The notes beneath the pieces were generated by a model, which had not been told where the DNA came from, ran no database searches, and saw nothing but the letters and a program-made list of their open reading frames with translations. The position numbers and the translations under genes were made by a program. Below, piece by piece: positions 7,165-60,541 of a stretch of DNA of 64,000 bases (positions are counted from its first letter, which is position 1; the number at the start of each line of letters is the position of its first letter). This stretch comes from Escherichia phage EJP2, in the sequence record OQ411014.1. One strand, written 5' to 3'.

Positions 7165-7175
7165 TGTGATATAAT
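7165..7175 (+). promoter_or_regulatory. extended -10 promoter TGTGATATAAT
   Basis: Exact copy of the recurrent motif; first of two tandem promoters upstream of the SSB gene. Confidence 0.5.
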
Positions 7176-57523: not shown

Positions 57524-57880
57524 ATGACTTGGATTTATCTTATTCTTTTATTCTCTGTAGTACTGTACCTTTTCTTTCTGAAAGGTGTTTCTGTAGTACT
57601 ACGCAAGATTGACAGTACTGAATGTGACGGTTCGATTGTGGATGTAATCATGGATTACCCACGTACAGTACTTGTGGGTTTATTTGTATTCTTGCTTATG
57701 TCCTTGTTTACTGTGCGTTATCAGATTGGTCAGATGTATGACTGTTCTGTTCGTAGTTCAGTACAGCAGGTACAAACGCAATATTCATGGTACTTTGATG
57801 TATGTCAGTTCAAGAACAAGTCCGGTGTTTGGATTGATTTCAAACAAGTTCGTGCTACACCGGATGGTGAGGAAGAGTAA
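57524..57880 (+). CDS. hypothetical small membrane protein (2 TM helices)
   Basis: Track ORF; AAGGAG RBS. Confidence 0.5.
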   Translation: MTWIYLILLFSVVLYLFFLKGVSVVLRKIDSTECDGSIVDVIMDYPRTVLVGLFVFLLMSLFTVRYQIGQMYDCSVRSSVQQVQTQYSWYFDVCQFKNKSGVWIDFKQVRATPDGEEE

Positions 57881-57886
57881 TATATA

Positions 57887-58363
57887 ATGTTCGAATTTGA
57901 AGAAGAGATTTATTTTGATCCTTCTGAAGATGGCTATACACACCTAAATGCGTATAGTAAAGGACGTACACGTTTGGGGAGGATGCTATCTAATTTTGCA
58001 TACTCCCCATTTGTGTTTGAGCCGTATGGTCACTTCAAATCGATGGAAGGATTCTGGTACTGGTACTGTACTGGTCAGAAGCATGATATTCTAAGAACCC
58101 TAAGTGGGGCGAAGGCCAAAGCTGAAGGCCAGAAGTTTCCTAGAGTGATTACATCAATGTCCGATGAAGATATCAGTACTATTCAAGATGCTATGGTAGC
58201 GAAGATAGTACAGAATAGTGAAATCAAAGATGCGTTGATGAAGTGTAATCTTGAGATAGTTCATTACTATGTATATGCAGGTAGGGTTGTACGATTAGAC
58301 CAGAAAGATGATTGGTTCGCAGAAACGCTGAACATGATTCGTGATGCATTACAGGGTAAATGA
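57887..58363 (+). CDS. NADAR/YbiA (DUF1768)-like protein, tentative
   Basis: LSNFAYSPF, SMEGFWYW, DAMVAKIVQNSEIKDALMKCN and LNMIRDAL blocks resemble the E. coli YbiA pattern from memory. Confidence 0.5.
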   Translation: MFEFEEEIYFDPSEDGYTHLNAYSKGRTRLGRMLSNFAYSPFVFEPYGHFKSMEGFWYWYCTGQKHDILRTLSGAKAKAEGQKFPRVITSMSDEDISTIQDAMVAKIVQNSEIKDALMKCNLEIVHYYVYAGRVVRLDQKDDWFAETLNMIRDALQGK

Positions 58364-58378
58364 GATGAAATGAAAAAT

Positions 58379-58389
58379 TGTGATATAAT
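58379..58389 (+). promoter_or_regulatory. extended -10 promoter TGTGATATAAT
   Basis: Exact motif copy directly after the stop at 58363; would drive transcription into the ORF-poor region. Confidence 0.5.
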
Positions 58390-58395
58390 CCTAAT

Positions 58396-58930
58396 ACAAT
58401 ACCAGTCCTTCGGGCGATACGTTCCCAGATTCGAAAAGTAGATGATGGATGAGCATGATGGTACATGCGAGTGCAGAGATACCCGTACGCGGCGTTTACG
58501 GCACGTTAAAGGAGCTTTTAGGCAGATAGGCTCCCTAGATAGGTAAACTGAAGGTCAACTTCACCATAATGCTAAGGGAGGCTCATATGAGCCACATGTA
58601 CGTTTGATCGAATAGACTGTACATGAAGTGGGCTAAGACCCCGACCGTTGCACATGACTGTGATAGAGAGAAACAGAGCAACCCGCTTTCGTTTCCTGAC
58701 CATTTTAGTACGGGTAAGTTGTATCTAAAATTCAGGAAAATTCACAATTCGATAATTCCGATGCTACCAGCGTCAGATTTAACATCCCCCCGTGGGGGAT
58801 GAAAATACCTCATCAAACCTCGTCAGGATATAAAGTACTAAAAGTGAATTGAGTTACGATAGTAACGAAAATTCTTTGACAATCGTAAGATTGGCGAATC
58901 AGAACCTTTACAACAATACAGGAATGAAGT
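58396..58930 (+). ncRNA. candidate structured non-coding RNA or long regulated leader (function unknown)
   Basis: About 535 nt with no ORF of 60 aa or more on the plus strand; about 52% GC in 58401-58500 by hand count; many short helices (CC-UUCG-GG, CATGTAC/GTACATG, CATCCCC/GGGGATG); boundaries approximate. Confidence 0.35.
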
Positions 58931-59167
58931 ATGATAACAGCAATATGTGAAATGGCTGACCAAGCCAGTGGTATAAAAGATGTTAGATTGATAGAAAACA
59001 CATTACAAGCTATGCAAGATTATGAAGACTATTGTGATGATCAGATCATGTGTGGTTTGGGTTTTTGTGTATATTTCTTTGATACCGAGAAAGATATGAA
59101 AGGCTGGTCAGAAGATGATGTATATGAGTTTATGCGTATTAACGCTCACTTGGAGATTGAAGTATGA
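58931..59167 (+). CDS. hypothetical small Cys-containing protein
   Basis: Track ORF; ATGA-type overlap with the downstream hydrolase gene. Confidence 0.45.
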   Translation: MITAICEMADQASGIKDVRLIENTLQAMQDYEDYCDDQIMCGLGFCVYFFDTEKDMKGWSEDDVYEFMRINAHLEIEV

Positions 59168-60105
59168 CTGAACTAAACAGAGCTAAAGGAAGTCTAATTG
59201 GATTAGCAGTAGGTGATGCAGTTGGAACGACTTTAGAGTTCAAAGTACGTGATGTCAAAAACATCACCGATATGGTAGGTGGTGGTCCGTTTAACCTCGA
59301 CGTAGGCCAGTGGACTGATGACACTAGTATGGCTCTTTGTTTGGGTTATGCACTTTTGCAAAATCATAATGTCAATGATATTGTTGATAGTATCAAGTGG
59401 TCACAAGTACAATTAGACAACTATGTAAAATGGTACATGAACGGTTACTGTAGTTCTAATGGATATTGCTTCGATATCGGAAGTACTACTCAAAGTGCAT
59501 TGCGTGCTTATATGAAAGATGGTGTCATTCGTAACAACGATCATTTCTTGGATTCAGGTAATGGTAGTCTTATGCGTCTTGCTCCAATTGCATTGTACTA
59601 TAACGCAAAGAATGTAGAAGAGTTCACAACTCTAGTGTATGCTGCTGACCTAAGTAGTACTACTACACATGCCAGTACTTTATGCCGTGAATCTTGTGTT
59701 GCATTTTCAGTACTACTCAATCGTGCTATCAATGGTATCGACGATAAGACTAAACTACTTGACTTCCCACCATCACTATGGAACGGTTTGGTGTCAGAGA
59801 AGTTAGTACTGGATGTGTTGAACGGTTCGTATAAGAATAAGACTCGTGAACAAATTAGTTCAAGTGGGTATGTTATTGATAGCCTAGAAGCCGCTCTATG
59901 GGCCTTCTGGAACACCGATAACTTCCGTGACGCTATCCTATTGGCTGCTAACTTAGGCAACGATGCAGACACTGTAGCGGCGATTACAGGGCAGATTGCA
60001 GGTGCTTTCTATGGTCTTGATGGTATCCCTGATGAATGGGTACAGAAGATTACAGCCACAGATGAAATCCAACAACTAGCTGAGGCTTTGTATAATGCAA
60101 ATTGA
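59164..60105 (+). CDS. ADP-ribosylglycohydrolase (DraG/ARH family)
   Basis: GSLIGLAVGDAVGTTLEF, GQWTDDTSMAL, GNGSLMRLAP and GNDADTVAAITGQIAGAFYG match ARH-family metal-binding blocks. Confidence 0.9.
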   Translation: MTELNRAKGSLIGLAVGDAVGTTLEFKVRDVKNITDMVGGGPFNLDVGQWTDDTSMALCLGYALLQNHNVNDIVDSIKWSQVQLDNYVKWYMNGYCSSNGYCFDIGSTTQSALRAYMKDGVIRNNDHFLDSGNGSLMRLAPIALYYNAKNVEEFTTLVYAADLSSTTTHASTLCRESCVAFSVLLNRAINGIDDKTKLLDFPPSLWNGLVSEKLVLDVLNGSYKNKTREQISSSGYVIDSLEAALWAFWNTDNFRDAILLAANLGNDADTVAAITGQIAGAFYGLDGIPDEWVQKITATDEIQQLAEALYNAN

Positions 60106-60541
60106 TAAGATTGTGAATGTCAAAATCGCACCAGGTCATAAAGTAACAATTGAACATACTTCGGTCGATACGCGTGAAACAATCGAAGCAGTTGTATCAT
60201 GTTCTACGCTAGATAATGGAAAAGGTGTTGCAGTCTTCAGTACTGAAGATGGTCAAGTCTTTACATGGAAACCTTCATTTTCTTCTTCACATGGGGAAGT
60301 AGTTCGAATTGATTCTGCACGTCCAGATGTTCTCGTCAATGCTTATGTAAGAGCATTCAGTACTGAAGTCCAACAGTACCGTCCGGTGCATGTAAATAGT
60401 GGTGAGTACACGTATACTGAAAAAGTATGTGAAACGCATAACTGGAGTGAAGCACTAGCACCACACGGTGATCATATATGTCTTGATTGTCGTATGGTAG
60501 TAAATGATAAATTTGAATTTGGAGTGTACTATGGGGATTAA
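60095..60541 (+). CDS. hypothetical protein
   Basis: Track ORF; overlaps the end of the hydrolase gene. Confidence 0.5.
   Translation: MQIDKIVNVKIAPGHKVTIEHTSVDTRETIEAVVSCSTLDNGKGVAVFSTEDGQVFTWKPSFSSSHGEVVRIDSARPDVLVNAYVRAFSTEVQQYRPVHVNSGEYTYTEKVCETHNWSEALAPHGDHICLDCRMVVNDKFEFGVYYGD

Follow-up and report, generated by a model that had tools for sequence, protein, structure and literature searches.

The locus described here raises the question whether two enzymes that remove ADP-ribose, encoded close together in a phage genome, form one functional unit with the sequences lying between their genes. It belongs to Escherichia phage EJP2, a Rak2-like jumbo phage of 349 kb (PMC10213699), and occupies positions 57887-60105 of the 64,000-nucleotide stretch that we analyzed (from record OQ411014.1; this whole stretch is called the window below). 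The locus comprises a gene for a NADAR-fold protein, a GC-rich gap, a small open reading frame (ORF) and a gene for an ADP-ribosylglycohydrolase (ARH); the genes and RNA features are all on the + strand. An earlier interpretation made from the letters alone, the sequence-only reading, had described these four elements as one counter-defence unit. According to the ORF list and the GC profile all four are found where it had placed them, and no ADP-ribosyltransferase (ART) is encoded between the two enzyme genes, as it had said. We come, with some reservation, to a different view of how the parts belong together: the region seems to consist of three juxtaposed separable modules and not of one operon, and the NADAR and ARH genes would be independent counter-defence or housekeeping genes. 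Both enzymes are of known protein kinds. The real novelty is the RNA encoded in the gap, which represents an undescribed large structured family.

The gap of 567 nucleotides (nt) between the NADAR gene and the small ORF (58364-58930) contains short ORFs only, and its GC content is 0.43-0.485, whereas the flanks have about 0.34-0.40. No other DNA of the region is as well conserved. With blastn, matches were obtained in 61 jumbo-phage records, at 2-4 places in each, and in most of these records the flanking genes are undetectable at the DNA level; the closest DNA relatives in the phage collection, Erwinia phage Hallingskeid and the Salmonella phages 7t3 and Munch, show an identity of only 79-84%. 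Annotated phage records, IMG/VR and metagenomes yielded 24 distinct copies of the element, of which 22 are full-length and were aligned (alignment A4). A helix model was derived from the covarying column pairs, and slid copies of the model as well as 500 shuffles served as controls. The model has 20 helices, namely about 16 in the core, two pseudoknot pairings (the second one being invariant), a terminator and a G+C hairpin.

The core (58396..58776) starts with a variable 5′ hairpin, which is followed by the helices Pa to Pl. In the alignment 85.8% of the core cells are in standard pairs compared with 39-46% for the slid controls, 53 pairs are changed on both sides (14-25 for the controls), 269 cells are compensatory (25-64) and the covariation score is 0.334 (0.05-0.085). 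For four of the five measures none of the 500 shuffles was as high as observed. The invariant single-stranded blocks of the core include CUAAGGGAG, CGACCGUUGC and GAUAGAGAGAAACAGAGCAACCCGCUUUCG. The pseudoknot PK1 (58607..58753) pairs the hairpin loop AUCGAAU (58607-58613) with AUUCGAU (58747-58753); all seven pairs change on both sides, 99.4% of the cells are paired and three covarying sequence variants occur. Downstream of the core there is the G+C hairpin CAUCCCCC-CGU-GGGGGAUG (58783..58801), whose four central C-G pairs are invariant. It is followed by a 3′ domain (58846..58893) consisting of the nested hairpin GAAUU/GUUAC...GUAAC/AAUUC (58846-58874) and the hairpin CAAUC-GUAA-GAUUG (58880-58893) and reaching up to the ribosome-binding site of the small ORF. 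For this domain (alignment A6, 17 copies) 88.5% of the cells are paired against 38-65% in the slid controls, and the covariation score is 0.19 against about 0.03. The folding z-score is -3.06 on the + strand, where none of 100 shuffles folded as well, and -1.93 on the - strand; together with the frequent G-U pairs these values place the structure on the + strand. The covariation support for the predicted structure is very strong, and conservation, folding z-score and compensatory covariation all bear out the GC-rich RNA that the sequence-only reading had postulated here. By these sequence criteria the gap is a self-contained structured non-coding RNA of about 500 nt, with a core of about 380 nt and a 3′ domain of about 120 nt.

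The RNA gene has an apparent promoter of its own. A weak -35-like ATGAGA is separated by an 18-nt spacer from the extended -10 sequence TGTGATATAAT at 58379-58389; the whole element (58360..58389) overlaps the stop codon of the NADAR gene, scores 10/12 with the TG and predicts a transcription start near 58396. The exact 11-mer TGTGATATAAT occurs at 11 sites on the + strand of the window, the other ten being located at 7165, 7261, 12552, 17454, 23911, 30427, 32972, 39288, 46035 and 62645, and with at most one mismatch there are 13 matches where 3.8 are expected. It is evidently the standard extended -10 promoter of the phage, probably for early genes, and is present upstream of nearly all RNA copies. 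In most copies the conserved core is followed by a hairpin and a T-run, i.e., an intrinsic terminator, and the G+C hairpin comes after it. In EJP2 this terminator hairpin of about 35 nt and its T-run are deleted (58770-58782; alignment A4 columns 513-554), and no terminator is predicted anywhere in 57700-60300. Copy a of phage 121Q likewise lacks the terminator hairpin. The loss in EJP2 may affect whether the RNA is set free or remains joined to the mRNA downstream of it.

No conserved ORF overlaps the RNA. In the relatives small ORFs have been annotated over it inconsistently and on both strands, and these public hypothetical ORFs are very probably spurious. Examples are Hallingskeid CDS0312-0314 (L001:3535-4037), 7t3_0550-0552 (L002:2955-3492) and 121Q gene 516 (L004:2977-3132).

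The RNA family is found in Rak2/121Q-like jumbo phages and in one rare E. coli island. The related phage records contain 2-5 BLAST-matching places each. Phage 121Q has three full copies. The first lies between genes 415 and 416 and adjoins NrdB and a DNA methyltransferase, the second is flanked by gene 517 and the gene of a structural protein, and the third has a gp46-like ATPase and an endonuclease VII gene as neighbors. Gene 415, upstream of the first of these copies, was considered as a NADAR homologue and is not one. In the paralogue group of the third copy a convergent gene, with which the RNA shares a terminator, lies opposite to it, so that here the RNA can be nothing but a free-standing transcript.

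Among 5,426 complete E. coli genomes searched with blastn, two unrelated isolates carry the RNA, LR-29-1 (NZ_AP027515, at about 3.479 Mb; L177:8630-9400) and EEC_W5 (L191). The island copy is full-length (nhmmer 393 bits, E=3e-120) and retains the phage-type TGTGATATAAT promoter and the terminator. The island, about 10 kb long, is integrated beside ffs; besides hypothetical genes it contains an integrase split by IS3, a resolvase and a DuOB/DUF488/mSLOG-DUF4326 cluster. Only the RNA segment is phage-like (80.6% to a paralogue of Serratia phage BF); the neighboring island proteins, compared with jumbo phages with a satellite in mind, have no homologues there. A 19-mer scan of the GTDB representative genomes gave no copy, all 13 matches being due to chance, and a 16-mer scan of metagenomes found a real copy in 4 of at least 120 stretches. 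With its own promoter, its paralogues in multiple contexts and the lone island copy the RNA gene thus appears to be an autonomous, transferable unit. We propose that the RNA would act in trans as a folded RNA, possibly as a ribonucleoprotein (RNP) scaffold, a ribozyme or a decoy, because certain paralogues stand by themselves between convergent genes and one copy has been captured alone in the E. coli island.

RNAs of such size and complexity are rare and have usually proved to be catalytic or RNP machines. The strong covariation, the several paralogues per jumbo-phage genome and the independent capture by an E. coli island make this RNA the part of the locus that matters most, and it is amenable to direct testing in a culturable E. 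coli phage. We found no description of it in the literature that we searched. Rfam 15, which covers among others GOLLD, ROOL, RNase P, tmRNA, group I and II introns, riboswitches and the T-box, gave no match at gathering thresholds over the 64 kb, and at E<=10 chance-level matches only on two divergent copies; ARAGORN found no tRNA or tmRNA in the gap. With GOLLD and ROOL the EJP2 RNA shares a length of hundreds of nucleotides, many helices and pseudoknots and a position in ORF-free gaps of phage genomes, but it matches neither of them in Rfam. The related jumbo phage PA5oct produces abundant non-coding RNAs (ncRNAs) from ORF-free regions, as defined by RNA-seq (PMC7318152). A comparison confined to the ncRNA001/002 region of that genome showed no sequence similarity, and we rejected these two ncRNAs as homologues. 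The EJP2 RNA differs from GOLLD, ROOL and the PA5oct ncRNAs in having several paralogues per genome, each with a consensus promoter, and in its restriction to Rak2/121Q-like phages and one rare E. coli island.

Three other identities were considered. A group I intron splitting a gene is ruled out: the NADAR domain of p158, the product of the upstream gene, is complete, and the RNA possesses a promoter and a terminator of its own as well as free-standing paralogues. A hammerhead core (CAGAUGAG...CGAA around helix Pb) is ruled out too, the invariant U4 and A13/A14 not being conserved in alignment A4. Kinship with RNase P amounts to a likeness of motifs. Part of the RNase P S-domain (P9, P10/11, CR-II), nt 111-145 of E. 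coli M1 (AAACCCACGACCAGUGCAACAGAGAGCAAACCGCC), resembles a segment of the RNA in the same order, namely the 3′ half of helix Pi and, after it, CGACCGUUGCA...AGAGAG...CAACCCGC. However, the local alignment score is no better than that of shuffles, the covariance models do not match even at E<=10, no equivalent of CR-I/CR-V or P4 was seen, and the CR-III-like CUAAGGGAG of the RNA is not colinear. The resemblance lies at window positions 58626-58692 and reads, against E. coli rnpB (L176:417-793, - strand), CCACGACC(A/G)(G/U)UGCA ... AGAGAG ... CAA(A/C)CCGC.

The hairpin at 58783-58801 (UUCCCC-NNN-GGGGGAUGAAA) is loosely like a type I-E CRISPR repeat, which we take to be UUCCCCGCGCCAGCGGGGAUAAACC. 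As to a CRISPR-repeat mimic, i.e., an RNA anti-CRISPR, the CCCC...GGGGGAUG hairpin gave with the Rfam CRISPR-DR models chance-level matches only, on the opposite strand (E=2.7 and 8.7).

The genes around the RNA gene vary among the relatives. Downstream of it, the slot that ends at the next conserved gene contains the small ORF and ARH in EJP2 and L031, ARH alone in 7t3, BF, L020 and L023, the small ORF alone in Pectobacterium phage CBB, an unrelated 75-aa ORF and ARH in Hallingskeid, and two unrelated ORFs in Yersinia phage fHe-Yen9-04. Cargo or inserts lie for example at L033:850-2052, L001:4075-4299 and L006:977-2701, the two unknown ORFs measuring 208 and 184 aa. The slot looks like a hot spot for accessory genes. 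Upstream, CBB has a 575-aa ORF placed after the NADAR gene and before the RNA, and the 121Q-like phages have a NADAR homologue far from the RNA and returned no ARH match. Taken together, the parts vary independently, and we see neither the co-inheritance nor the single transcription unit that would be expected of an operon.

The small ORF itself (58931..59167; p78) encodes 78 aa and has no match in Pfam, PHROG or NCBIfam. Five homologues with 45-96% identity, among them CBB_350 of phage CBB, which is not followed by ARH, share an invariant N-terminus MITAICEM. By conservation p78 is a real small acidic protein. Its stop codon overlaps the ARH start in an ATGA, which agrees with the translational coupling proposed by the sequence-only reading.

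The product of the NADAR gene (57887..58363; p158, 158 aa) is 100% identical to EJP02_341 of EJP2, and the gene is the last one of an upstream + strand gene string. The Pfam NADAR model (PF08719) does not match p158 at E<=0.1 and NCBIfam has no match. Its sole Pfam match is Phage_30_3, the T4 gp30.3/AdfN family, with 18.5 bits (E=0.0019) over residues 33-85 only, which is below the gathering cut-off of 36 bits. A profile of 18 p158 homologues, on the other hand, has as its top two PDB matches the NADAR structures 8bau (E=0.006) and YbiA 2b3w (E=0.034). The AlphaFold (AF2) model (predicted local distance difference test 88.6, predicted template-modelling score 0.83) shows the five-helix core and the flanking beta-hairpins of the NADAR fold. 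With this model Foldseek found in the PDB as credible matches only 2b3w, 8bau and 8bat, i.e., YbiA, the Phytophthora NADAR and the Geobacter lovleyi NADAR (probability 1.00/1.00/0.99; template-modelling score 0.53-0.59), all other matches having a probability of at most 0.08. Among the predicted viral structures of BFVD the own uncharacterised clade came first and then dozens of annotated NADAR proteins. A further match was a 293-aa "DprA-like" fusion of Erwinia phage vB_EamM_RAY (A0A173GE06), in agreement with the NADAR-SLOG fusions of Iyer et al. (PMC9503650). In proteins of some 290 aa whose annotation is DprA-like, i.e., SLOG-like (PHROG 652), the p158-type domain forms the C-terminal half. 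Finally, hhalign aligned the p158 family with T4 gp30.3 (probability 89.7%, E=1.8e-6). The NADAR assignment made from the letters alone is therefore sound, being upheld by family profile, Foldseek, BFVD and hhalign, although a profile search of the plain kind, with the Pfam and NCBIfam models, misses it.

T4 gp30.3 is AdfN, a NADAR that takes ADP-ribose off DNA and overcomes DarTG1, with E36 and K43 as essential residues (PMC11825919). Like AdfN, p158 is a small stand-alone phage protein of the NADAR fold and has the LSNF...S-x-E motif with the conserved Glu that is catalytic in NADARs: E54 is invariant in the 18 homologues and aligns with T4 E36 and with the Glu of 8bau. Phage NADARs are set apart by a His in the last strand (PMC11125620), which AdfN and p158 share. 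In p158 this is H126, which is part of an invariant H-Y-Y motif in the predicted strand 123-130, one of the last strands, and aligns near the T4 K-H-S motif. Unlike these features the overall identity is only 26%. From sequence and model p158 thus appears to be a NADAR-fold enzyme of a separate divergent phage clade, nearest to the T4 gp30.3/AdfN type and with a partly rewired active site. The clade is present in 573 phage records (tblastn), and the 40 matches listed are annotated as hypothetical or not at all; the idea of AdfN-type orphan antitoxins would thereby extend to a large clade. Among known families NADARs alone reverse the ADP-ribosylation of guanosine both in DNA and in RNA (PMC11833690). 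By analogy p158 would most likely strip ADP-ribose from nucleic-acid bases, as AdfN does against DarT1, or from a related substrate such as an ADP-ribose-derived small molecule.

The second enzyme (59164..60105, 313 aa) is unambiguously an ADP-ribosylglycohydrolase by homology, as the sequence-only reading had recognized and as Pfam, NCBIfam and PDB matches confirm. It matches Pfam ADP_ribosyl_GH (PF03747) with E=5.7e-66 and 223.5 bits (cut-off 26.2) over the full model (1-287 of 287), and its closest characterised relative is PDB 6dre, Tri1 (E=3e-78). The metal-binding motifs are all kept: D18, E25, T51-D52-D53-T54 and D267-A-D269-T270 align with 6dre and 2cwc and correspond to GDAxG...E, T-D-D-T and D-x-D-T, which we take to be the binuclear metal-site motifs of the DraG and ARH3 structures. 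Tri1 is an ADP-ribosylarginine hydrolase of Serratia proteamaculans that confers immunity to the type VI secretion system toxin Tre1. The EJP2 protein shares with Tri1 and DraG the full-length ARH fold and every metal motif. With the NCBIfam Tri1 model NF041672 it scores 358 bits, under the equivalog cut-off of 490 bits, and we classify it from its sequence as Tri1-like and not as a Tri1 equivalog. The match begins at model position 66 of 361 (6dre chain residue 68), so that the toxin-binding N-terminal extension of Tri1, about 65 residues, is absent; the EJP2 ARH also has no partner toxin and is encoded by a phage. Because it is Tri1-like it is probably arginine-specific, and most likely it would take ADP-ribose off protein arginines. 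ARH genes are rare in phages (43/50,697 records), and Iyer et al. estimated about 5% for jumbo phages (PMC9503650). A Tri1-like ARH in a phage implies that host or phage ADP-ribosylates arginine during infection, an activity not so far described among anti-phage defences.

The arrangement that we propose is then as follows. The consensus phage promoter would drive an RNA gene that is one paralogue of a jumbo-phage family. Downstream there would be a variable cargo slot, occupied in EJP2 by the translationally coupled p78 and the ARH. Since EJP2 has lost the terminator after the core, these two genes would probably be transcribed by read-through of the RNA gene, the RNA serving as their 5′ leader. 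NADAR and ARH would each act alone, in counter-defence or in ADP-ribose housekeeping, and would share a syntenic accessory locus.

Several observations weigh against this reading. The position seven residues after the conserved Glu, which is a phosphate-coordinating Lys in the proteins compared (AdfN K43, PnNADAR K50, E. coli C7 K95) and is essential in AdfN and in NADARs of the DarG1 type, is C61 in p158 and Leu, Val, Ile, Phe or Arg in its homologues; hhalign brings K65 to the position of K43 only with a 4-residue gap, corresponding to one turn, and K65 is not conserved across the family. The mapping of the active site that had been suggested thus came out mixed, E54 and H126 being kept and the Lys not, and for want of this Lys the hydrolase activity of p158 is not assured. 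To our knowledge no defence system has been identified as the target of any phage ARH. In all 12 of the 12 ARH-bearing Rak2-like phage records ARH lies 15-700 nt downstream of the same RNA paralogue, and phages infecting at least six host genera (Escherichia, Salmonella, Klebsiella, Erwinia, Serratia and Xanthomonas), as well as metagenomic contigs, share the order NADAR...RNA...ARH. Finally, the island copy in E. coli is located 2.4 kb from the DuOB/DUF488/mSLOG-DUF4326 cluster, which is the PADLOC candidate PDC-M45. Iyer et al. assigned DUF4326 and SLOG to the network of NAD/ADP-ribose conflict (PMC9503650).

Another role is conceivable for the two enzymes. The altered active site of p158, in which the essential AdfN K43 has become Cys or Leu, may mean another ADP-ribose substrate. 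NADAR and ARH, instead of countering host ARTs, could regulate an ADP-ribosylation that the phage itself carries out on host proteins, in the manner of Alt and Mod, or degrade soluble immune signals derived from ADP-ribose. Iyer et al. argued that NADARs of phages act for the most part on ADP-ribose derivatives of low molecular weight and that ARTs of the phage are often expressed together with them (PMC9503650), and the fusion to a SLOG/DprA-like domain in phage RAY would fit as well. However, there is no ART domain among 25 of the 41 Pfam families of the 78 window ORFs, AdfN and the other phage NADARs assayed to date do reverse DarT1 (PMC11825919), and ARHs of the Tri1 type act on protein arginine. 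We consider this role rather improbable.

The recurring gene order and the constant nearness of ARH to the RNA, on the other hand, could mean that NADAR, RNA, p78 and ARH do form one unit against host ADP-ribosylating immunity, in which RNA and p78 are regulator, decoy substrate or scaffold. The complementary substrate ranges of the NADAR and ARH families (PMC11833690) and the SLOG, DUF4326 and DUF488 genes near the island copy would suit such a unit. The idea of counter-defence as such gains from this complementarity and has a direct precedent in AdfN against DarTG1 (PMC11825919); as a four-part unit it did not hold up. The RNA has a separate consensus promoter and, in the relatives, its own terminator. 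It is present in several copies in unrelated gene contexts without ADP-ribose genes and alone in the E. coli island. p78 and ARH are each dispensable, CBB having p78 without ARH, and 7t3 and BF having ARH without p78. We therefore regard the single unit as unlikely.

A narrower variant would tie the RNA alone to the NAD/ADP-ribose conflict, as a new class of large ornate RNA, a ribozyme or RNP core, that is for example target, decoy or regulator of an RNA-directed ADP-ribosylation serviced by NADAR and ARH. It is kept in view by the adjacency of ARH in 12/12 records and by the only bacterial copy being beside the mSLOG-DUF4326/DUF488/DuOB cluster, and we give it little credence. Synteny also leaves room for a link: within the non-Asteriusvirus branch, Escherichia, Salmonella, Erwinia, Serratia and Pectobacterium phages and several metagenomic contigs keep the order NADAR...RNA...cargo...o60504-homologue. 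These coincidences may nevertheless reflect accessory hot spots that are shared, and not function. The chance that there is a real mechanistic tie between the RNA and the ADP-ribose module seems small to us.

The terminators raise the possibility that the RNA acts in cis, as a riboswitch or attenuator in a leader that senses a ligand or a macromolecule and controls read-through into the cargo genes. The hairpin and T-run after the core in most copies, the conserved structure up to the next start codon, the ARH start 15 nt past the 3′ domain in 7t3-type phages and also the deletion of the terminator in EJP2 could be understood in this way. For several paralogues, however, nothing but a convergent gene and a shared terminator lies downstream, so that they have no target of regulation in cis. 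With about 500 nt and about 16 core helices the RNA is moreover far larger than known riboswitches, and no riboswitch or T-box of Rfam matches it. Such a regulatory role is quite unlikely in our view, and we prefer to regard the RNA as a separable module acting in trans.

The window is a replication and nucleotide-metabolism region; a Pfam survey of its 78 ORFs found ribonucleotide reductase, topoisomerase II, RNase H, dihydrofolate reductase, a DnaB-like helicase, RecA and a clamp loader. The RNA locus could in this setting be one of several origins of the 350-kb genome, with a promoter-driven structured pre-primer RNA as in ColE1 RNA II or T4 oriF/oriG; by borrowing this element the E. coli island would have itself replicated by an incoming jumbo phage. 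The several copies per genome, the RNase H gene and the capture of the RNA gene alone would agree with this. However, the locus shows no GC-skew inflection, no adjoining initiator genes or iterons were seen, and the architecture, with its pseudoknot and its long single-stranded blocks that are invariant, resembles RNP or catalytic RNAs more than a primer. We regard an origin as the least probable of these explanations.

Further genes were seen in the part of the window upstream of the locus (1-57000). Intermingled with the replication genes are those for an IF3 homologue with both IF3_N and IF3_C, for a LAGLIDADG homing endonuclease, for a type 1 RNase H and for a TelA-like protein.

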